64,000 nt of DNA from NCBI GenBank assembly GCA_020279385.1, contig GCA_020279385.1_4762.2; one strand, 5' to 3'. This DNA comes from a phage. The translations under genes and the position numbers were made by a program. This document shows, one piece after another, positions 14,512 through 34,721 of the stretch. Position 1 is the stretch's first letter. Every line of letters begins with the position of its first letter. The notes under the pieces were generated by a model, which did not search any database, was not told the DNA's origin, and saw only the letters and a program-made list of their open reading frames with translations.

Positions 14512-15699
14512 ATGAGCGTATTTAACCGCGAACATGTTGATATTATGAACGAACCGATGTTTCTGGGTAGTGGGTTGGGTATCGCTCGCTATGATATTCA
14601 GCGTCATCAAGTATTTGAAGAACTGATCGAAAAGCAATTGTCATTTTTCTGGCGTCCCGAAGAGATTTCACTTGCAACCGACCGCATACAATATCTTAAT
14701 ATGGGTGACGTTGAAAAGCGTTTCTTTACCGAAAACTTGAAGTATCAGACATTACTTGATTCTATTCAAGGTCGCGCACCGTCCGCAGCATTTGGTCCAA
14801 TTGTATCTGATCCAACTCTCGATACATGGTTGCAAACATGGACATTCAGCGAAACGATTCATAGCCGAAGCTATACACACATTATGCGTAACTGTTTCAT
14901 TGATCCGGCTAGTGAGTTCGACCAGATCATCGATAACCCTGCTATCATGAAGCGAGCGGAATCTATCGGGAAATATTATGATGATGTTCTTTATTGGATT
15001 CGTAAGTATGAGAATGCAAAAGAAGATCTCCGCTATTGGGAAGAAGAAGTTCTCCACCACTATTGGGAAGAACGAGACGATCAGACAGAATTAGATGATG
15101 CAAGAAGATTTTTTGAAGATACAAAACGAGATCTGATGGCTTCGATTTATCTGTGTGCACACTGCGTCAATGCACTGGAAGCAATCCGTTTTTATGTGTC
15201 CTTTGCATGTACTTTCAGCTTTGCCGAACGTGGTTTACTGGAAGGTAACGCGAAGATCATGAAATTTATTGCGCGTGATGAACAACTTCATTTAAAAGGC
15301 ACACAATACATTATTCGTCAATGGCAAACGGGGGGTGATGGTGATGAGTGGAAACAGATTGCGGAAGAACTTGAAGGCGAAGCAACGAAAATCTTTCTGG
15401 ATGTTGTCGAGCAAGAAAAAGAATGGGTAGACCACCTATTCGCAATGGGGGCAATTCCTAACCTGTCACCGGAAATTCTGAAAACCTATGTAGAATACCT
15501 GGCAGATTCCCGTATGCGTGCTGTCGGACTGAAAAGCCCGTTTAGTGTTCGTCGTCATCCGTTACCGTGGATGCGTAAGTGGTTAAACTCTGACGAAGTT
15601 CAAAACGCGGCGCAAGAAGTAGAGATTATGTATCTGGTGTCTCAGGTTAATACCGATTTAACAGACGATGACTACAACCGATTCGGTAAATATCTATGA
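14512..15699 (+). CDS. nrdB: ribonucleotide reductase small subunit
   Basis: 395 aa; di-iron/tyrosyl radical protein pattern (SETIHSRSYTHI, EAIRFYVSFACTFSF, ARDEQLH); uninterrupted ORF. Confidence 0.95.
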   Translation: MSVFNREHVDIMNEPMFLGSGLGIARYDIQRHQVFEELIEKQLSFFWRPEEISLATDRIQYLNMGDVEKRFFTENLKYQTLLDSIQGRAPSAAFGPIVSDPTLDTWLQTWTFSETIHSRSYTHIMRNCFIDPASEFDQIIDNPAIMKRAESIGKYYDDVLYWIRKYENAKEDLRYWEEEVLHHYWEERDDQTELDDARRFFEDTKRDLMASIYLCAHCVNALEAIRFYVSFACTFSFAERGLLEGNAKIMKFIARDEQLHLKGTQYIIRQWQTGGDGDEWKQIAEELEGEATKIFLDVVEQEKEWVDHLFAMGAIPNLSPEILKTYVEYLADSRMRAVGLKSPFSVRRHPLPWMRKWLNSDEVQNAAQEVEIMYLVSQVNTDLTDDDYNRFGKYL

Positions 15700-16172
15700 T
15701 ATATTTTGTCGATTTAGATTTTACGATCACAGATCCAACACATCGACTAGCAAAGATGCCAACCGAAAATCTTGATAAAGTCGAGTCATGGATCGAATAT
15801 AACAAGGCATGTGGGGGAGATTCCCCCATTTACGATGTAATTCGTGTTATTAATGCTCTTTCCGACAACGGGCATTTGATTTACATCCTCACCGGACGAA
15901 GTTCACATGCTTACATGGAAACAATTGATTGGTTAATTTCTAACGGGGTGTGTTTTGATAAAATCTTTATGAGAGGCCGTACCGATTCCCGTAAAGATTA
16001 TCACATCAAATTAGAGGTAATTAAATCCTTTGATAAAGATGAAGTTGTCGGAGTCTTTGAGGATAACCCAGAAGTGATTAAAGTTTTGCGTGAAAATGGT
16101 TATCGTGTCTTTGACGTAGGAAATCACAAAGATAAGACGCGAGCGGATATTGCAAATCACGGTCATGATTAA
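15696..16172 (+). CDS. HAD-superfamily phosphatase (nucleotidase-like)
   Basis: 158 aa; N-terminal DxDxT motif (FVDLDFTIT), later ILTGR and FEDNPE acidic motif; start overlaps nrdB stop (ATGA). Confidence 0.6.
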   Translation: MIYFVDLDFTITDPTHRLAKMPTENLDKVESWIEYNKACGGDSPIYDVIRVINALSDNGHLIYILTGRSSHAYMETIDWLISNGVCFDKIFMRGRTDSRKDYHIKLEVIKSFDKDEVVGVFEDNPEVIKVLRENGYRVFDVGNHKDKTRADIANHGHD

Positions 16173-26747: not shown

Positions 26748-26963
26748 ATGAGCAAATTTAAAGATTATCGAGCATATAAAGCGATCTGCGATATATTCGA
26801 TGAAAAGACCGCTCATGAAATGATGGAAGATGCAGAACAATATGAATCATTCGTCAATTCCAAAGATTGCACAGTAAACGGGATTGTGTGCTGGAAAGAT
26901 ACAAAGTATGAAGAAAAATGGATTACCGTGTATTACGGAGAACTAGAATATGAAATTAACTAA
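26748..26963 (+). CDS. hypothetical small protein (71 aa), tandem paralog B
   Basis: MSKFKDYRAYK...; ATG 26748. Confidence 0.5.
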   Translation: MSKFKDYRAYKAICDIFDEKTAHEMMEDAEQYESFVNSKDCTVNGIVCWKDTKYEEKWITVYYGELEYEIN

Positions 26964-27270
26964 AAAGATTTTCCCAGAATTGCGTAACTGTCTGTTATTG
27001 GTTACTGAATATAAGCCGTATACGATCTACTTGTATGTTGATGAAAATCTGAAAATCCGTTACTATGATTATACGTCTCCAGTGATGAAATCATTTGCTC
27101 ACTCGATAGCAAATAACTGTATGAATCACAATCATTGGGTATCAGAAACGGATGACGATGCGTCAGAAGTTGTAGTGGTTGCATGGAATCTATCACCAGC
27201 GGAAGCAGATCAAGCACGCATTAAGCATTATGCGAAAAACAATTGGTTTGACCTTATAAGTGAGGACTAA
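26950..27270 (+). CDS. small protein, HxHW paralog family member
   Basis: 106 aa; IYLYVDENLKIRYYDY and NHNHWVSE...VVVVAWN. Confidence 0.5.
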   Translation: MKLTKKIFPELRNCLLLVTEYKPYTIYLYVDENLKIRYYDYTSPVMKSFAHSIANNCMNHNHWVSETDDDASEVVVVAWNLSPAEADQARIKHYAKNNWFDLISED

Positions 27271-27274
27271 TATT

Positions 27275-27553
27275 ATGTTCAAAGTAGGTGATAAGTTTAT
27301 TCTTAGTCGTGATATTCTCCCTAATCTGAAAGGTTGTATCATCAATCCTAGTAAAAATTCATGGTTTTATCTGTTTATCGACGACAAACTGAATGTACGC
27401 GCAGAATATAAAGAAGGTCTTCGTACTGGTCTAGGTTTCTTTCACGATCATGATCATAGCCATTGGTTAAACGGTGGATTCGAAGCAACGGTGCTAGCGG
27501 TTGACGTGACCTACACAAACATCATAGAAAAATATCAAAAAATTATTTTATAA
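27275..27553 (+). CDS. small protein, HxHW-LAVDV paralog family member
   Basis: 92 aa; WFYLFIDDKLNV and HDHSHWLNGGFEATVLAVDV; ATG 27275 with RBS GTGAGGA. Confidence 0.5.
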   Translation: MFKVGDKFILSRDILPNLKGCIINPSKNSWFYLFIDDKLNVRAEYKEGLRTGLGFFHDHDHSHWLNGGFEATVLAVDVTYTNIIEKYQKIIL

Positions 27554-27975: not shown

Positions 27976-28284
27976 ATGAAAGATAATATCTTTGAATTTA
28001 CCCGCGAAAATCTCCCAATGTTCCGAAAGTCTCTGCTTAAACTAGAGAACAGCAATTACAACGTATATTTTTACATCACCGAAGACCTAGAGATCCTTTA
28101 CGCAGATTATCCAGGTCCGATCCGTACCTTCGAAGAAGCATCGCAGTATAAAAATGTTCACGGTCATGAGCACTGGTTACGAGAAAACCCAGGTCGCAAG
28201 AAAGCACGCGTTAAAGTGTTGGCGATTGACATAACACCAGCATACGCCGACCGGATTGCACTGAATGATTATTTGTCTAAATGA
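27976..28284 (+). CDS. small protein, HxHW-LAxD paralog family member
   Basis: 102 aa; VYFYITEDLEILYADY and HGHEHWL...KVLAIDI. Confidence 0.5.
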   Translation: MKDNIFEFTRENLPMFRKSLLKLENSNYNVYFYITEDLEILYADYPGPIRTFEEASQYKNVHGHEHWLRENPGRKKARVKVLAIDITPAYADRIALNDYLSK

Positions 28285-29288: not shown

Positions 29289-29317
29289 TTGACAGGGGAG
29301 GATAACTCCCCTACAAT
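29289..29317 (+). promoter_or_regulatory. PeSL-like promoter cassette (TTGACA-17-TACAAT)
   Basis: Palindromic spacer GGGGAGGATAACTCCCC; leader caaccatcaagacgagataccacttaggagaatcaaa. Confidence 0.65.
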
Positions 29318-29357: not shown

Positions 29358-29609
29358 ATGGCTAACATCGAAACCGCAAAGAAAATCGCTAAAGACCTGA
29401 ACGTTAAAGGCTTCCGTAAACTGAAATTACAGCGTGTACGCTACACCATCGGCAAACAGTGCTCTTTCATGAGCGAAGAAGTTGCTAACAGCCTCATTGA
29501 TAACCTGATTGCGGCTGGCTGGGAAGTTGCGGATCTGAAAACTTGCCGCGAACTGGCTAACAAAGGTCTTTTAGATTCTGTTACTATCAAACCAATGGGG
29601 GCAGCGTGA
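29358..29609 (+). CDS. hypothetical protein (83 aa)
   Basis: Starts MANIE, sharing its first 16 nt with the 31486 ORF. Confidence 0.5.
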   Translation: MANIETAKKIAKDLNVKGFRKLKLQRVRYTIGKQCSFMSEEVANSLIDNLIAAGWEVADLKTCRELANKGLLDSVTIKPMGAA

Positions 29610-29851
29610 AAAGAAAATTAATTAAACGCAATAAGGAATTTCTTAATAACTGCATTAAGGCCGCTAATGGTTGGCCTTTGTTCCTCTTCCTTTATGATTG
29701 GTATTCTAAACAATCGGTAGAGGAAACACGACACTATAAGAAGATCAGAAAAGAATCATATACAAAACAAGGCCGCATTAACGGACTTTACTTAATGTGG
29801 CACGGCAAAGAACCTTCTAAAATCTGTGTTGGATTAAAGGGGCGTATATGA
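29606..29851 (+). CDS. hypothetical basic protein (81 aa)
   Basis: GTG start overlapping previous stop; Lys/Arg-rich; uncertain. Confidence 0.35.
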   Translation: MKRKLIKRNKEFLNNCIKAANGWPLFLFLYDWYSKQSVEETRHYKKIRKESYTKQGRINGLYLMWHGKEPSKICVGLKGRI

Positions 29852-30564
29852 AACAAAAATTAATATTCTGCAACTTTGACGGATCGGGGATAATGGGGCT
29901 AGAATGGGCTAAAGCAGGTCATAAGGTGATCTGCTTTAATGCTGACGATGGCGACCACGGCACATACAAAAAGTATAATACCCGATTTGAACATCCAAAC
30001 ATTACCTATGTAAACACATGGATTGATTTGAACTGGCTGGAAAGAGCAATGGACCTTGAATGGGGGAAACCGGATATTATCTTTGCATTCCCACCGTGCA
30101 CCAATTTAGCTGTTAGTGGCGCTGCACACTTTGAACGAAAGAAACGAGAACAAGGACCATTGATTCAAGTTCATGATGTAAGGGCAGCTAAAATAACCGC
30201 TTATTTGGGTGAATGGCTAGGAGTTCCCTACATGATAGAGAATCCTGTAAGCGTTATCTCTAGCATGTGGCGTAAGCCTGATTATATGTTCCATCCGTGG
30301 GAATATGGTGGTTATTTGCCGGAAGATGATAAGCATCCTACGTTTCCTGAGTATATTGCCGCCCGTGATATGTACCCGAAAAAGACTTGCTTATGGACCG
30401 GACAAGGCTTTATGATGCCAGAAAAGAAACCTTTGCAGATTAATAAAGGGTACAGTAAACAGCATTCTAAGCTAGGCGGGAAAGGAACGAAAACAAAGAC
30501 TATAAGGTCACTTACCCCGCGAGGATTCGCAAAGGCAGTATTTGAAGCCAATAAGGATCTATGA
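29848..30564 (+). CDS. C5-cytosine methyltransferase-like protein (compact, no obvious target-recognition domain)
   Basis: 238 aa; motif I-like IFCNFDGSGIMG, motif IV-like FPPCTNLAVSG (Pro-Cys), motif VI-like ENPVSV, motif X-like RSLTPRGFAKAVF. Confidence 0.5.
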   Translation: MKQKLIFCNFDGSGIMGLEWAKAGHKVICFNADDGDHGTYKKYNTRFEHPNITYVNTWIDLNWLERAMDLEWGKPDIIFAFPPCTNLAVSGAAHFERKKREQGPLIQVHDVRAAKITAYLGEWLGVPYMIENPVSVISSMWRKPDYMFHPWEYGGYLPEDDKHPTFPEYIAARDMYPKKTCLWTGQGFMMPEKKPLQINKGYSKQHSKLGGKGTKTKTIRSLTPRGFAKAVFEANKDL

Positions 30565-30893
30565 TGAGATTGTTTAAGTATTCGCTAACGTCAAATTACG
30601 ATAAACAAGGTCATTGCATCCGTTGCCCTGATTGTCATAGCCATAACATCGAAAGCAAGATCACCGATCATATTGATGGACTTTGGTCGCCAGCAAGTGA
30701 AATAGAATACTATTGCTCTGATTGTGGAATTGTAGTAGCATATTGGGCATACGGATCATATGATCCATACTTCCAGATGGGAGAGCGTTCAATCCCTGCG
30801 CTCATCTGGAGAATTAAGAACAATATCCGCCATTCATGGGATGAGTTCTTAAAAGATATTGATTTACGTGATGATCCATTCAGGAGACTATAA
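30561..30893 (+). CDS. Zn-ribbon protein (110 aa)
   Basis: CIRCPDCHSH ... CSDCG; two CxxC pairs; translationally coupled to flanking genes. Confidence 0.5.
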   Translation: MMRLFKYSLTSNYDKQGHCIRCPDCHSHNIESKITDHIDGLWSPASEIEYYCSDCGIVVAYWAYGSYDPYFQMGERSIPALIWRIKNNIRHSWDEFLKDIDLRDDPFRRL

Positions 30894-30894
30894 C

Positions 30895-31413
30895 ATGAAC
30901 CGTTTAACGCCTAAACGCCGCTACTATACCAATACTAAAAACTTTGTTATCTCTGTTTACGAAGCATGGTTAGAAGATGGCTATATCAACATGAACCCAG
31001 ATTATCAGCGTCCTTTAGTATGGGACACCGAAAACAAACGTATGTTTATTGAAAACCTGATTAATGATTTTCCGGTTGGTGCTATCGCAATGGCTAAGAT
31101 TGATGATGGCTCTCGCTATGAGATCGAAATCGTGGACGGTAAACAGCGTTTAAACGCAATATTCTCCTTTATGAAGGATGAGTTTAGCATTGCCGGTAAT
31201 GATGATTCTATGTTGTATTACAGTGATTTTACGCCAGCAGAAAAGCGACGTTTCCGAAATCTCGGACTACCCGCGATCATGATGGAAGAGAGCACACGAG
31301 AAGACCGATTAGAGTATTTCTACAAAACAAACTTTTTCGGTGTGCCTCAATCGGAAGAACATCGCCAGCATGTGATTGCCCTATTGCAAGATGAGCAATT
31401 AAAAAATAACTAA
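30895..31413 (+). CDS. DUF262 / ParB-like domain protein (DGQQR-type motif)
   Basis: ~173 aa; NPDYQRPLVW and EIVDGKQRLNAIFSF resemble the DUF262 DGQQR signature; ATG 30895 with RBS CAGGAGAC. Confidence 0.55.
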   Translation: MNRLTPKRRYYTNTKNFVISVYEAWLEDGYINMNPDYQRPLVWDTENKRMFIENLINDFPVGAIAMAKIDDGSRYEIEIVDGKQRLNAIFSFMKDEFSIAGNDDSMLYYSDFTPAEKRRFRNLGLPAIMMEESTREDRLEYFYKTNFFGVPQSEEHRQHVIALLQDEQLKNN

Positions 31414-31420
31414 AAAGTTG

Positions 31421-31449
31421 TTGACAGGGGATCGGTGATCCCCTATAAT
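31421..31449 (+). promoter_or_regulatory. PeSL-like promoter cassette (TTGACA-17-TATAAT)
   Basis: Spacer GGGGATCGGTGATCCCC identical to the 25785 cassette. Confidence 0.75.
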
Positions 31450-31485
31450 GCACACATACCGAAACGAACTACTAAGGAGTATCAA

Positions 31486-31698
31486 ATGGCTAACATCGAA
31501 ATCATCATTACCGACGTAACTTATGACCGCATTAACGAAATCGGTACTGCATTACTGGAAGATGGAACAACTCGTACCATCAACTACGCAGAATACGTTG
31601 AAATGCGTGGTTGTATTAAACGAGTAGGAAAATATACCCTGATTGAAAAAGACTATTCAGGATACACCTTAGAGCAATTGCTTGATGGTGCATTATAA
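31486..31698 (+). CDS. hypothetical protein (70 aa)
   Basis: ATG 31486 after cassette; starts MANIE like the 29358 ORF; track start 31435 lies in the promoter. Confidence 0.5.
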   Translation: MANIEIIITDVTYDRINEIGTALLEDGTTRTINYAEYVEMRGCIKRVGKYTLIEKDYSGYTLEQLLDGAL

Positions 31699-31704
31699 TA
31701 AAAA

Positions 31705-31766: not shown

Positions 31767-33818
31767 ATGTTTAACTTAGAAATCGACGATCTAATGATTG
31801 AATCTTTCGAGAAATGGCTGTTGACGGAAGAGGAAGAAAACTTTGGCAGTATTGCTCCTGTACAGTGCTTAAAGCCTAAGCAGAATCCTAAACAGCTTTT
31901 TGCAGTACAGACACGCGATAAAGATGTGATTGTCCGTCTTTGCAACTTCACCAACAAAACACCTAAAATCATTCGTATGGGCGACAAGACCGCACATGTT
32001 GTACTGTGCGAAATGAACAAAAGCGGTCGTATTGTACAGCTTAAAAATGGTCTAGGCGATAACCCGATTGCAGTCATGGCAAGTGCTTTTGATGTGGTTA
32101 TGGAAACAGCCCGTAAAGCGCAATTAGACGCTGTTATGTTCCGTTTTAACGTATCCCGCATGAAAGGTAAGACCGAACTGATTAAGCGCGTTATAGAGCG
32201 TTTGGTGCGTCGTACACCGAAGTTTGAAGTATTCCAGCAGGAAGTAATGACCAGCAAAAAGATCGCTTTAGTTGTTGTCAAGCGTCGCGGGATAGCGATT
32301 GATAAGATTAAAGGGATTAAACTTGATGAATCCTTGTTCACTAAAGTAGAAAGTGATTTAGGTGATCGCTGGGTATCTAAGGCTACTGGTGAATCTCTGA
32401 CTAAAGATGAAGCGTATGCGGCTAGTCTTGTGTCAGAAGAAGAACGAAACGCGGAAGCAGAACAACGCGTAGCGGCTAAATCTCGTTTGACTAAAGAAGA
32501 AATGCTGAAAACTCAAGCGACCTATAACAGCGACTATGTGAATCATCCAGAAAAAATTAATCTTAAACCGGAAGAAGATATCACCGAAGCCGAACCTAAG
32601 AAACAGTTTAATACTCTGATTGACCGTCAAGCCTTAGAACGTTCAACCGCCCGTTCTCTGAATGACTGGACAAGTGATATTATCACTCGCTATGGTTTCA
32701 TGCGTACTATTTTTGAAAGCGAAGCCGATGCAAAATACGCAGTAAGCGAACTGGTAAAAGTTCAGGATCAATATGATCCGTTGTCTGCGGAAGTTATCGC
32801 AGCATCAATCAAACGCTTAAAAGAAATCATGAGCGAGGAAGTATTCGAAAACAAGATCACCGCCCTGGCAATGGATCGAGTAGACCAGTCTATGCCAGCA
32901 GATGTAAAAGCTGAAATGCTGCGTAGTCATATCACCCAGATTAAAACCGATGCCCTACGTAATGTTGCTTCCGGTATGTTTGAAGCAATTGCTAGCAACA
33001 TGGGTGAAATGATGGCAGATATTGATCTTGATCTGCCAGGTGCGGAAGGTTTTGTGTTGAGCGAATATGCGGATGCAGCATACATCAATATGAACAACTT
33101 CCTAACCGACCGTAAGCTGGAAGAATTTGATGGTATCGCAGATCCAGAAGAATTGGTCAAGATGTGCGATGCACTGGATAATGCCTTCTCTAACTATGGT
33201 GTTAAACTTGATCCGGGTACTATTCTGTATCGTGGTATGGACTTCCGGTCTCAAATGTGGGAAACTGCACGTAAGCAAAAAGCGTTTTACTTTAAAAACT
33301 ATGTGAGCACTTCCCTTGCACCTAACATTTTTGGCGGCTGGAATGCAAACGTGGCTAGTGCCGTTGCTGGTGTTGATTCTATGGCTGGCTCTCGCGGTGA
33401 AGGTGGCGCTAATGTTGCTTTCTCCATTGCTGGCGCGGAAAACATCCCTGTATTGCCAGTAGGTAACAAAGCATTTGCTTACAAAGAATGCGAGATTTTA
33501 CTTCCTCGCGGTGTTGTGTTATCCTTTGATACGGTAACTCGTGCTACGGCATCGACGGATTCACAAGAAACTTATTACATTGAGGCACATATTATGAACA
33601 AAAATGAACTGGCAGCATTACAAGAATCTGGCGAGATGATCGCGGACGGTGATGCATTCATCCGTGAAGGTGTTGTTAAACCTGCTTCTGACCTGTCTTT
33701 CTCCAGCTTTATTACCGAAGCTAAAACCGAACGTAAGAAAGCAGATAAGGCAACTCTACGTCAGCTTATCGCTGATCTGGTATCTGTAGACGCAATGCCA
33801 GATAAATTTAAAATGTAA
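31767..33818 (+). CDS. alt: ADP-ribosyltransferase Alt
   Basis: 683 aa (T4 Alt ~682 aa); C-terminal R-S-ExE ART triad (LYRGMDF, YVSTSL, KECEILLPRG); position next to ligase region and gene 54 as in T4. Confidence 0.75.
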   Translation: MFNLEIDDLMIESFEKWLLTEEEENFGSIAPVQCLKPKQNPKQLFAVQTRDKDVIVRLCNFTNKTPKIIRMGDKTAHVVLCEMNKSGRIVQLKNGLGDNPIAVMASAFDVVMETARKAQLDAVMFRFNVSRMKGKTELIKRVIERLVRRTPKFEVFQQEVMTSKKIALVVVKRRGIAIDKIKGIKLDESLFTKVESDLGDRWVSKATGESLTKDEAYAASLVSEEERNAEAEQRVAAKSRLTKEEMLKTQATYNSDYVNHPEKINLKPEEDITEAEPKKQFNTLIDRQALERSTARSLNDWTSDIITRYGFMRTIFESEADAKYAVSELVKVQDQYDPLSAEVIAASIKRLKEIMSEEVFENKITALAMDRVDQSMPADVKAEMLRSHITQIKTDALRNVASGMFEAIASNMGEMMADIDLDLPGAEGFVLSEYADAAYINMNNFLTDRKLEEFDGIADPEELVKMCDALDNAFSNYGVKLDPGTILYRGMDFRSQMWETARKQKAFYFKNYVSTSLAPNIFGGWNANVASAVAGVDSMAGSRGEGGANVAFSIAGAENIPVLPVGNKAFAYKECEILLPRGVVLSFDTVTRATASTDSQETYYIEAHIMNKNELAALQESGEMIADGDAFIREGVVKPASDLSFSSFITEAKTERKKADKATLRQLIADLVSVDAMPDKFKM

Positions 33819-33896: not shown

Positions 33897-34721
33897 ATGT
33901 TCAAACAATTACAGGATTTTCGTCTTTCAGAAGAATCACGCGAATCAATGATGGAACGTATGGACAATTATATTGAAACATATGACATTGAGGGGATTAA
34001 TGGTTACATGATCACTGAGATGATCAGCGATCAGATTAACTTTGATGATTATGTGAAGGTTATCCGCTTCCTTGAGCGTGAGACACAAGATTATGGATTT
34101 GTCAAGAAAATCATTAATGTGATGTATGAAGTACACTCCGAAGACTTTGGAGATAATGTATTCAAACATTACAAACATAACAACATAACCCCAGCAGAAT
34201 ATAATGCAATCTGTGATTATGTATCTGAACAATACGAATGGGTAAATGGTGCTCTCTTAGGGGAAGAAGACATGACCGATGAGATATCAGAGATTGTCGA
34301 TTTGATGGATTGCGTCATGGATAAAACCGAAAAGTTAAACGGTACTCTTTATCGCGGTCAACATCTTGACATTCAGACAATAGAGCGCATCATTGAAGAT
34401 AAGGAGTTTACCTTTAAAAACTTTGTATCGACCAGCATGACACCGATCATCTTTGGAGGATGGCTATCAAACAGCACTAGCCTTTATTGTGAGAATCGAT
34501 ATGAATCAATGACCGGAAAGATGCAACATTCTTGTAATGTATCATGGGTAATTGACGTAAAAGATCATAAAGGTTTTGTTGTTGGGTCAATTGCATGGAA
34601 CCCTTGCGAATGTGAAGTAATTTTACCGCGCGGGACTTGCGTCAAGGTAAACGACGTAGTAGAATCTTTCGGCGATGAGAATCGTAGACAATTTACAATT
34701 TTCGGTGAGGTGACTAAATGA
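33897..34721 (+). CDS. Alt/Mod-like ADP-ribosyltransferase (second ART paralog)
   Basis: 274 aa; R-S-ExE triad (TLYRGQHL, FVSTSMTPIIFGGW, CECEVILPRG) parallels Alt C-terminus. Confidence 0.65.
   Translation: MFKQLQDFRLSEESRESMMERMDNYIETYDIEGINGYMITEMISDQINFDDYVKVIRFLERETQDYGFVKKIINVMYEVHSEDFGDNVFKHYKHNNITPAEYNAICDYVSEQYEWVNGALLGEEDMTDEISEIVDLMDCVMDKTEKLNGTLYRGQHLDIQTIERIIEDKEFTFKNFVSTSMTPIIFGGWLSNSTSLYCENRYESMTGKMQHSCNVSWVIDVKDHKGFVVGSIAWNPCECEVILPRGTCVKVNDVVESFGDENRRQFTIFGEVTK

Follow-up and report, generated by a model that had tools for sequence, protein, structure and literature searches.

The Dcm-like C5 cytosine methyltransferase of phage K42 is the trigger of retron Ec86 (Eco1), and its gene is the ortholog of the one encoding Dcm in phage KarlJaspers (Bas06). 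When K42 Dcm was expressed alone from pBAD, the level of 5mC on the Ec86 msDNA was raised, as measured by LC-MS, and the retron was triggered; a quadruple mutant at C82/E128/K175/K176 produced neither the rise in 5mC nor retron triggering. In that paper, the CCWGG specificity was carried over from E. coli Dcm as an assumption, its sole backing being mutation of the msDNA site. A search of the literature on cytosine methylation in Krischvirus, or on CCWGG methylation in Drexlerviridae, found nothing beyond the retron paper.

The second described system is the promoter/stem-loop (PeSL) cassette of phages RB49 and phi1 (PMC4122927). The DNA analyzed here (the window, 64,000 nucleotides) belongs to an RB49-like phage of the genus Krischvirus, with 98.9% identity to RB49, and encodes a relative of the K42 and KarlJaspers enzymes within such a cassette. 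The locus is probably an ordinary PeSL-bounded early cassette of five genes, comprising a self-sufficient C5-methyltransferase (MTase) and unrelated accessory neighbours, rather than a single three-protein machine.

Organization of the Early Cassette

A promoter scan together with reading of the sequence placed a tight chain of five genes, all on the plus strand (29358–31413), between two PeSL early promoters. The upstream one (29289–29317, plus strand) is formed by TTGACA, the stem-loop GGGGAG-GATAA-CTCCCC, and TACAAT (scan score 11/12), and the next one, which marks the end of the cassette (31421–31449, plus strand), by TTGACA, the stem-loop GGGGATC-GGT-GATCCCC, and TATAAT (match 12/12). Both flanks are near-consensus sigma-70 promoters with embedded stem-loops, matching the PeSLs of RB49 and phi1 (PMC4122927). 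The cassettes described in the hyperplastic region of these phages (Arbiol 2010; Comeau 2014) likewise carry, on either side, TTGACA-N17-TATAAT with a hairpin of the form G(n)-loop-C(n), and PeSL indels among close relatives are a further shared trait: RB49p186 is found in some and missing from others, and phage SAP has a PeSL duplication of 79 bp. The present locus looks like a typical example, with nothing notable to set it apart, and its upstream promoter would drive a five-gene early cassette in the hyperplastic region of an RB49-like phage.

The first two genes, known from their open reading frames and the RB49 annotation, are up1 (29358–29609; 83 aa, RB49p190) and up2 (29606–29851; 81 aa, RB49p189.1, phrog_7065), joined by a GTGA overlap. 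The three open reading frames that an earlier note on this DNA had listed downstream are present and are equivalent to RB49p189, RB49p188, and RB49p187: an MTase gene (29848–30564; 238 aa), which overlaps up2 through ATGA (29848–29851), a putative Zn-ribbon gene (30561–30893; 110 aa), and a DUF262 gene ending at 31413 (30895–31413; 172 aa). The MTase and Zn-ribbon genes overlap, as the note had indicated, in an ATGATG (30561–30566), and the RB49 RefSeq record starts the Zn-ribbon gene at the second ATG (30564), which yields 109 aa. A single nucleotide separates the Zn-ribbon stop (30893) from the DUF262 ATG (30895), and the AGGAGA Shine-Dalgarno sequence of the DUF262 gene sits within the end of the Zn-ribbon gene. 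A DUF262 start farther upstream, inside the Zn-ribbon gene, was considered and rejected; the ATG at 30895 was retained (compare the RB49p187 annotation). The note's observation is confirmed, but the chain comprises five genes and not a trio.

A Compact Dcm-like C5-Methyltransferase

The third gene of the cassette would encode a compact, self-sufficient C5-cytosine MTase of the phage Dcm-like family. Its product matches phrog_757 over residues 1–237 (E 2e-90), and its counterparts in RB49, kvi, TB34, and other phages carry existing annotations of ‘DNA methyltransferase’, ‘Dcm’, or ‘C-5 cytosine DNA methylase’. The match to the Pfam C5-MTase family PF00145 fell below the gathering threshold (14.6 bits, cutoff 22) and covered residues 10–100 only. 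No match was obtained in NCBIfam, and none among PDB chains, either with the single sequence or with the family profile, even at E<=10. Alignment of the family profile to E. coli Dcm with hhalign was confined to 23 columns at motif IV (E 0.26), where the PPC of the phage protein fell on the PC of the E. coli enzyme, and showed no sequence homology to the E. coli Dcm/M.EcoRII orthologs extending to the target-recognition domain (TRD). The idea that the short recognition segment is a cut-down version of the E. coli Dcm TRD was dropped, as the hhalign alignment covers motif IV alone.

Comparison of 33 family members (56–64% identity) revealed invariant residues at F10-x-G12-S13-G14, P82-P83-C84-T85, and E131-N132-P133, as well as at the C-terminal I219-R220-S221-L222, R225, and G226, with T223 and P224 conserved in at least 90% of members. 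Motif I (FDGSG, 10–14), the catalytic PPC (82–84), ENP (131–133), K178/K179, and RSLTPR (220–225) are thus located. The earlier assignment of C5-MTase-like motifs I, IV, and VI stands, but RSLTPRGFAKA, read there as motif X, resembles instead motif IX, which we take from M.HhaI to be R-x-L-x-P-R-E-x-A. Motif X is presumably at most a vestige following RSLTPR, with a near-invariant N235. The predicted fold superposes on solved C5-MTases, and with the catalytic Cys and Glu intact, the assignment of the 238-aa protein to the SAM-dependent C5-MTase fold, as first proposed from the sequence, is supported.

The protein shares with canonical C5-MTases (PF00145: M.HhaI, M.HaeIII, E. coli Dcm; the DNMT3A/3B catalytic domain) the Rossmann MTase fold, motif I FxGxG, motif IV PC, motif VI EN(V/P), and the motif IX-like R-x-L-x-P-R. 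However, bacterial type II C5-MTases exceed it in length by ~100 residues, and its motif X is presumably reduced to a C-terminal helix. Between the last core strand and RSLTPR lies a recognition segment of ~35–40 residues (186–224), short in every member examined; DNMT3 also has only a short one. The suggestion that so small a TRD makes this an abnormal enzyme did not hold up, as the best 120 of 7301 homologous clusters are all 219–259 aa long and the K42 ortholog was reported to make 5mC in vivo on its own.

The protein is 55% identical over its full length to KarlJaspers bas06_0055 (E 2e-91; 236 vs 238 aa), and residues C82/E128/K175/K176 of K42 correspond to C84/E131/K178/K179 here. In K42 and KarlJaspers, as in the present phage, the gene stands alone among replication and early genes. 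By homology with these enzymes, the MTase most likely flips the target cytosine, with Cys84 attacking C6, Glu131 protonating N3, and SAM donating the methyl group, and the conserved mini-TRD (about 186–224) would give sequence recognition. The MTase is a member of an already annotated family with an experimentally studied relative, and little in it is new.

Target Site and Modification State of the DNA

One difference from the described enzymes lies in the variable loop before LGGK, which is of the YSxQH type here (GYSKQH) and of the NPGW type (DNPGW) in K42 and KarlJaspers. The present phage also differs from KarlJaspers in CCWGG avoidance, strong in the former and lacking in the latter. The window contains 22 CCWGG sites against 74 expected (O/E 0.30), and no other 5-mer palindrome for which a substantial number was expected is as depleted there, whereas KarlJaspers shows no depletion (O/E 1.04). 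Carriers of the YSxQ loop tend to avoid CCWGG (median O/E 0.67) and carriers of NPGW do not (1.08). This correlation, though indirect evidence, suggests at least two specificities in compact Dcm-like methylases, and the YSxQH subtype may have a target other than CCWGG.

The MTase could plausibly serve in anti-restriction: the enzyme probably methylates, early in infection, a short motif of low frequency in the genome, blunting type II restriction. Both its catalysis and its purpose are proposed by analogy with the homolog, and the Krischvirus target may not be CCWGG. Given the split of loop subtypes and the depletion of CCWGG here and not in KarlJaspers, the target of such a role is uncertain, and palindrome statistics show avoidance in the window phage too broad to pick out one protected site.

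Krischvirus phage TB34 carries the same MTase, Zn-ribbon, and DUF262 genes; no modified nucleosides were detected in its DNA by HPLC/MS, and BrxU does not act on this DNA. HpaII and NheI both cut the DNA of RB49. With TB34 showing no bulk modification and RB49 open to both enzymes, methylation would be site-specific rather than bulk. The same TB34 result could also indicate that in Krischvirus the protein does not function as a DNA methylase and that it acts on RNA or a nucleotide, uses another cofactor, or is a decaying passenger gene; the literature treats RB49 as unmodified, and CCWGG is avoided as though unprotected. We regard this as improbable, since the catalytic residues are all invariant, the open reading frame is intact in every Krischvirus record, and the homolog makes 5mC in DNA. 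In addition, methylation of a rare site would lie below HPLC detection, amounting to an estimated ~0.2% of cytosines if the site were CCWGG.

Another proposal starts from phage SAP, a Krischvirus reported with 5-hmdC and glycosylated derivatives through a pathway called unknown (PMC13390438), although the genus lacks a dCMP hydroxymethylase. The MTase might then be the entry to an unrecognised post-replicative hypermodification of cytosine, a route for which the C5-MTase and TET pathways to hypermodified cytosine of other phages offer a precedent (PMC8256090). This explanation is extremely improbable. The coding sequences of the three genes are identical in SAP and the unmodified TB34, the sole local difference being the 79-bp promoter duplication downstream, so the locus is not the cause of the reported difference in modification. 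A full complement of modified cytosine would also be hard to achieve for a site-specific enzyme. Moreover, the SAP profile groups with seven Tequatrovirus phages of the same collection, and SAP DNA was the one least cut by BrxU; a mixed DNA preparation is therefore, in our reading, the simpler explanation of the SAP result.

The DUF262 and Putative Zn-Ribbon Proteins

Downstream of the MTase, the putative Zn-ribbon protein (30561–30893, phrog_2993) carries the motifs CxxCxxC...CxxCG, SNYDK, and YWAYG. Cysteines C18/C21/C24 and C51/C54 are conserved with a Nonagvirus homolog, and all Pfam and NCBIfam zinc-ribbon matches fell below the cutoffs.

The last protein of the cassette (30895–31413) had been read as DUF262-type, a reading confirmed by its match to PF03235, GmrSD_N (E 5e-20, 72.9 bits, cutoff 33.2), and by the motifs YQRPLVW, DGKQRL, and NFFGVPQSEEH; NCBIfam returned no match. 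It ends at residue 172, and a DUF1524/HNH nuclease or other domain is absent. A word-indexed search retrieved only 7 relatives, and an exhaustive HMMER search was used instead; none of the best 150 relatives exceeds 344 aa, and ten of these, checked in Pfam, had no second domain. The DUF262-only subfamily is made up of proteins of 160–340 aa, and the identity of the 172-aa protein as a stand-alone DUF262 domain is supported. It shares with the GmrSD_N enzymes (GmrSD, BrxU, SspE, DndI) a PF03235 match above threshold, the DGxQR motif, and the ParB/Srx fold, but differs from them in having no effector domain, in being phage-encoded, and in its own invariant C-terminal GVPQSEEH. The protein is probably an NTP-binding switch of the ParB/Srx type without a nuclease.

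Co-occurrence of the Three Genes

Homologs of the three proteins were found in very different numbers of phage records (MTase 1524, Zn-ribbon 286, DUF262 325, the last including RB43-like phages), with the same ~57 Krischvirus records in each set. Both partner genes lay within 6 kb of the MTase at one of 80 IMG/VR MTase loci, the Krischvirus locus itself, and at the other 79 neither a Zn-ribbon nor a DUF262 homologue was found nearby. Elsewhere among phages, the MTase often has a helicase or primase gene close by, and the closest MTase outside Krischvirus (63% identity) has HNH and SIR2 neighbours. KarlJaspers differs from the present phage in having no homolog of either partner. Around 33 DUF262-only loci (110 neighbours), MTase families are absent from the 25 commonest Pfam families, and in RB43 the DUF262 homolog is not preceded by a Zn-ribbon gene, the gene at that place having no Cys motif and no tblastn match.

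Contig L148, from a diverged relative, has homologs of up1, up2, the Zn-ribbon gene, and the DUF262 gene at 56–72% identity, and the MTase is missing. Its up1 homolog, 72% identical, heads this MTase-less cassette, and up2 overlaps the Zn-ribbon gene through an ATGA junction at the place occupied by the MTase in the present window. Contig L147, like L148, breaks the trio, and up2 is absent from L090, a Krischvirus-like contig.

The earlier note had proposed a three-gene DNA-modification or anti-restriction module and a co-occurrence check across phages. That module is not upheld: it appears at 1 of 80 MTase loci, KarlJaspers lacks the partners, L148 lacks the MTase, and in relatives outside the genus the three genes were never found together. 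The differing record counts, the single co-occurrence, the missing MTase enrichment, and L148 argue for the independence of the three genes. Under the reading of an ordinary cassette, the Zn-ribbon and DUF262-only genes would be separate accessory genes placed beside the MTase by PeSL-mediated shuffling. They adjoin in two lineages, Krischvirus and L148, and their joint persistence in both could reflect a functional link that also takes in up1 and up2.

Fusions of ParB domains to MTases are common in phages, and by analogy the Zn-ribbon protein, the DUF262 protein, or both could load onto DNA, or guide to its target, a methylase with too small a TRD of its own, the three forming one DNA-modification machine. 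Their genes overlap or abut with coupled starts and are all kept in the ~57 Krischvirus records. However, Krischvirus genomes are 97–99% identical, so conservation within the genus weighs little; the K42 homolog acts when expressed alone, family members share a strongly conserved mini-TRD, both partners are missing at 79 of 80 MTase loci, and the L148 cassette does without the MTase. Such a machine is very improbable.

Alone or together with the Zn-ribbon protein, the DUF262 protein might instead serve in counter-defence against type IV enzymes of the GmrSD family (GmrSD, BrxU, SspE-like), poisoning or decoying them as a nuclease-less mimic of their NTPase domain. It consists of the DUF262 domain alone, with YQR, DGKQR, and GVPQSEEH invariant and no nuclease; its early gene adjoins the MTase; RB43-like phages with homologues are reported to have a C5-methylase and no hmC pathway; and BrxU cleaves many cytosine modifications. 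We still consider this role unlikely, as most MTase carriers at the IMG/VR loci have no DUF262 gene, L148 has DUF262 without the MTase, DUF262-only genes show no MTase enrichment (33 loci), and TB34 DNA, unmodified in bulk, is no BrxU substrate anyway. A version in which the Zn-ribbon and nuclease-less DUF262 proteins act as a pair against the NTPase/sensor domain of GmrSD-family enzymes, with the YSxQH loop possibly reading a motif other than CCWGG, is likewise doubtful.

Implications for Krischvirus and Related Phages

If the DUF262 protein were such a decoy, a phage with a 5mC methylase would escape modification-dependent restriction, and if it acted in counter-defence together with the Zn-ribbon protein, the Krischvirus cassette would pair ‘modify’ with ‘escape modification-dependent restriction’. 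Beyond this genus, compact Dcm-like phage methylases make up thousands of clusters and occur in more than 1500 phage records, and DUF262 proteins without a nuclease are a phage family of considerable size.

Organization and Modularity of the Cassette

The region 29600-31700 shares 98.9% identity with Krischvirus RB49, and its identity to ~57 other Krischvirus records is 97-99%. Reading of the ORFs confirmed the three genes named in the earlier note, encoding a methyltransferase (MTase; 29848-30564; RB49p189, 'DNA methyltransferase', 238 aa), a putative Zn-ribbon protein (30561-30893; RB49p188, 109 aa), and a DUF262 protein (30895-31413; RB49p187, 172 aa). Counterparts of RB49p189 are labelled 'Dcm', 'putative C-5 cytosine DNA methylase', or 'putative methyltransferase' in other records, and the DUF262 gene is labelled 'DUF262 domain protein' in one. 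The junctions are tight, with an ATGA overlap between upstream gene up2 and the MTase gene, an ATGATG overlap between the MTase and Zn-ribbon genes, and a DUF262 start (ATG 30895) 1 base past the Zn-ribbon stop, preceded by AGGAGA. However, the trio is not the whole unit, as five abutting genes occupy 29358-31413, beginning with up1 (29358-29609, RB49p190) and up2 (29606-29851, RB49p189.1). On the 5' side of this cassette is a promoter (29289-29317, TTGACA-GGGGAGGATAACTCCCC-TACAAT) that is close to consensus and contains a hairpin, and a second promoter of the same hairpin type lies on the 3' side (31421-31449). Both are PeSL elements (early promoters with an embedded stem-loop) known from RB49/phi1, through which cassettes are shuffled in hyperplastic regions (PMC4122927).

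The proposal that the trio forms a functional module was not supported. The families differ widely in distribution, with the compact MTase found in 1524 phage records (tblastn), the Zn-ribbon protein in 286, chiefly Felixounavirus and Nonagvirus, and the DUF262 protein in phages that include Krischvirus, RB43-like, and Slopekvirus myoviruses; only ~57 Krischvirus records are common to all. A Zn-ribbon or DUF262 homolog lay within 6 kb of the MTase gene in one of 80 IMG/VR loci, itself the Krischvirus locus, and neither was found within the 50 kb searched in the T1-like phage KarlJaspers (Bas06). The RB43 DUF262 homolog is placed amid unrelated small genes, the Nonagvirus Zn-ribbon gene is likewise isolated, and the nearest non-Krischvirus MTase gene (63% identity, 152-kb contig) neighbours an HNH gene, a gene for a 217-aa product, and a SIR2 gene. 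No MTase family was among the 25 commonest Pfam families near DUF262-only genes (110 neighbours, 33 loci). Most tellingly, in a 2.5-kb metagenomic contig (L148), up1 (72% identity), up2 (69%), Zn-ribbon (66%), and DUF262 (56%) genes follow the order of the window, with an ATGA overlap joining up2 directly to the Zn-ribbon gene and no MTase gene, which identifies the MTase gene as a separable insertion (or deletion) in the cassette. The remaining cassette genes have stayed together in two lineages or more. A 46-aa ORF separates the Zn-ribbon and DUF262 genes there (L148:841-981), as against 1 nt in the window. A Krischvirus-like contig (L090) lacks up2, as predicted by PeSL-type modular shuffling.

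Other differences occur around these promoters. In the RB49 RefSeq record, a gene for a 59-aa product (RB49p186) separates RB49p185 from the DUF262 gene; the window lacks it (31413-31486; L001:4815-5133), a ~248-bp indel at a PeSL. Krischvirus phages SAP and TB34 are 99.96% identical and are reported to differ in cytosine modification (PMC13390438); their sole substantial difference in the 5.4-kb region is a 79-bp tandem duplication, in SAP, of the same downstream PeSL promoter (L089:3302-3380), creating a new small ORF, the rest being single-base indels. RB49p185 (31486-31698; 70 aa, phrog_10679), directly downstream of the cassette, has homologs in KarlJaspers (bas06_0050, 48% identity, ~3 kb from dcm; L008:35455-35646) and in a second MTase locus (L032:3642-3833). 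It is followed by a 683-aa Alt-like ADP-ribosyltransferase (31767-33818; phrog_802, E 2e-179) and an adjoining 274-aa paralog resembling the C-terminal half of Alt (33897-34721; phrog_15144). Upstream, three small tandem, paralog-like ORFs (26950-27270, 27260-27553, and 27976-28284; 106, 97, and 102 aa), each preceded by a PeSL-like promoter, have in common a 'Y-x-Y/F-(V/I)-D/E-(E/D)-x-L-x-(I/V)' stretch and an H-x-H-W motif.

The Compact Methyltransferase Family

The Pfam C5-MTase model matched only residues 10-100 of the 238-aa protein, below threshold, and PHROG 757 ('DNA methyltransferase') matched its full length (E 2e-90). Its AlphaFold model was confident (pLDDT 88.9). The proposed SAM-dependent MTase fold is a sound assignment, so the refuting outcome of a placement outside that fold did not arise. 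The family comprised 7301 clusters at 90% identity, the best 120 of which were 219-259 aa long. Invariant in 33 members (56-64% identity) were FxGSG (10-14), PPCT (82-85), ENP (131-133), W141-R142, K178, T180, LGG (209-211), and, C-terminally, I-R-S-L (219-222), R225, and G226. The segment formerly called motif X may instead be a motif IX like that of M.HhaI (R-x-L-x-P-R), with a short helix after it at the C terminus.

The short target-recognition region had been regarded as an oddity, but it proved to be normal for a family already known, one member of which is active in experiments. Mutants of K42, a KarlJaspers relative, that escape retron Ec86 carry mutations in a 711-bp dcm gene; expression of this gene by itself increased the 5mC content of msDNA (LC-MS) and set off the retron, and the C82A/E128A/K175A/K176A mutant did neither (10.1101/2023.08.16.553469). 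The mutated residues correspond to C84/E131/K178/K179 in the window MTase, and KarlJaspers dcm (bas06_0055, 711 bp) encodes a protein 55% identical to it over the whole length (E 2e-91). The compact architecture is therefore that of an active, self-sufficient enzyme family.

Methylation State and Site Avoidance

HpaII and NheI both cleave the DNA of RB49, which the literature regards as unmodified. Phage TB34 carries the same trio (proteins 96-99% identical to those of the window), and a 2026 paper detected no modified nucleosides in it by HPLC/MS, which rules out cytosine methylation or hypermodification in bulk. A methylated motif that is rare would be compatible with that result; CCWGG as target would involve ~0.2% of cytosines, as estimated from window counts.

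The CCWGG specificity of K42 Dcm was borrowed from E. coli Dcm, its sole support being an msDNA site mutation (10.1101/2023.08.16.553469), and no similarity of the compact family to E. coli Dcm was detectable beyond motif IV. Of the 5-mer palindromes with substantial expected counts in the window, CCWGG shows the strongest depletion (22 vs 74 expected, O/E 0.30), whereas KarlJaspers shows no avoidance of it (123 vs 118). The family divides by a variable loop before LGGK (window 30400-30480; L009-L088) into 'YSxQH' (the window phage), 'NPGW' (K42-like), and others. Among IMG/VR loci, CCWGG O/E was at least 0.9 in 23 of 25 NPGW carriers (median 1.08) and below 0.9 in 29 of 35 YSxQ carriers (median 0.67), a difference (Mann-Whitney p ~1e-6) drawn from loci of ~12 kb or shorter that are not phylogenetically independent. 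The loop subtypes may reflect differing specificities, and this correlation hints, only suggestively, that the Krischvirus MTase may protect something other than CCWGG. RB49 is commonly propagated on E. coli B, and Ec86 is present in the B derivative BL21(DE3) (10.1101/2023.08.16.553469), which fits weakly with a Krischvirus MTase that does not trigger the retron.

Across the whole window (1-64000), GAATTC (0 vs 20 expected), TCCGGA (0 vs 23), AAGCTT (0 vs 14), GGATCC (0 vs 13), GGCC (26 vs 67), and GGSCC (0 vs 8) are scarce or missing, and GATC occurs about as often as expected (367 vs 343). Palindrome avoidance is thus very broad, and the phage seems to escape type II restriction mainly by site loss. 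Endonuclease II, encoded by denA, degrades cytosine-containing DNA in its T4 version. The gene is annotated in RB49 (L145, NC_005066 130528-130989; ~window 15500-16000), a phage with ordinary cytosine in its own genome. A speculation in one review is that the C5-methylase might help to spare the genome from denA (PMC8056088).

The Zn-Ribbon and DUF262 Proteins

The putative Zn-ribbon protein belongs to phrog_2993, and its CxxCxxC...CxxCG, SNYDK, and YWAYG motifs are kept in the Nonagvirus homolog. The 172-aa protein carries a genuine DUF262/GmrSD_N domain (Pfam), as had been claimed, in which YQR..VW, DGKQRL, and N-x-x-GVPQSEEH are invariant. The model of this protein (pLDDT 71) can be superposed on ParB-N, PadC, SspE, KorB, DndI, and BrxU, and a search of the PDB with the family profile found BrxU and DndI. 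Members of the DUF262-only subfamily, collected by exhaustive HMMER search, are either ~160-190 aa or 250-340 aa long, the longer ones bearing extra N-terminal sequence that has no annotation; none of the best 150 relatives exceeds 344 aa, and the ten of these checked in Pfam carry no nuclease domain. A decoy role against GmrSD-family enzymes is a conceivable but unlikely reading of this nuclease-less DUF262 protein.
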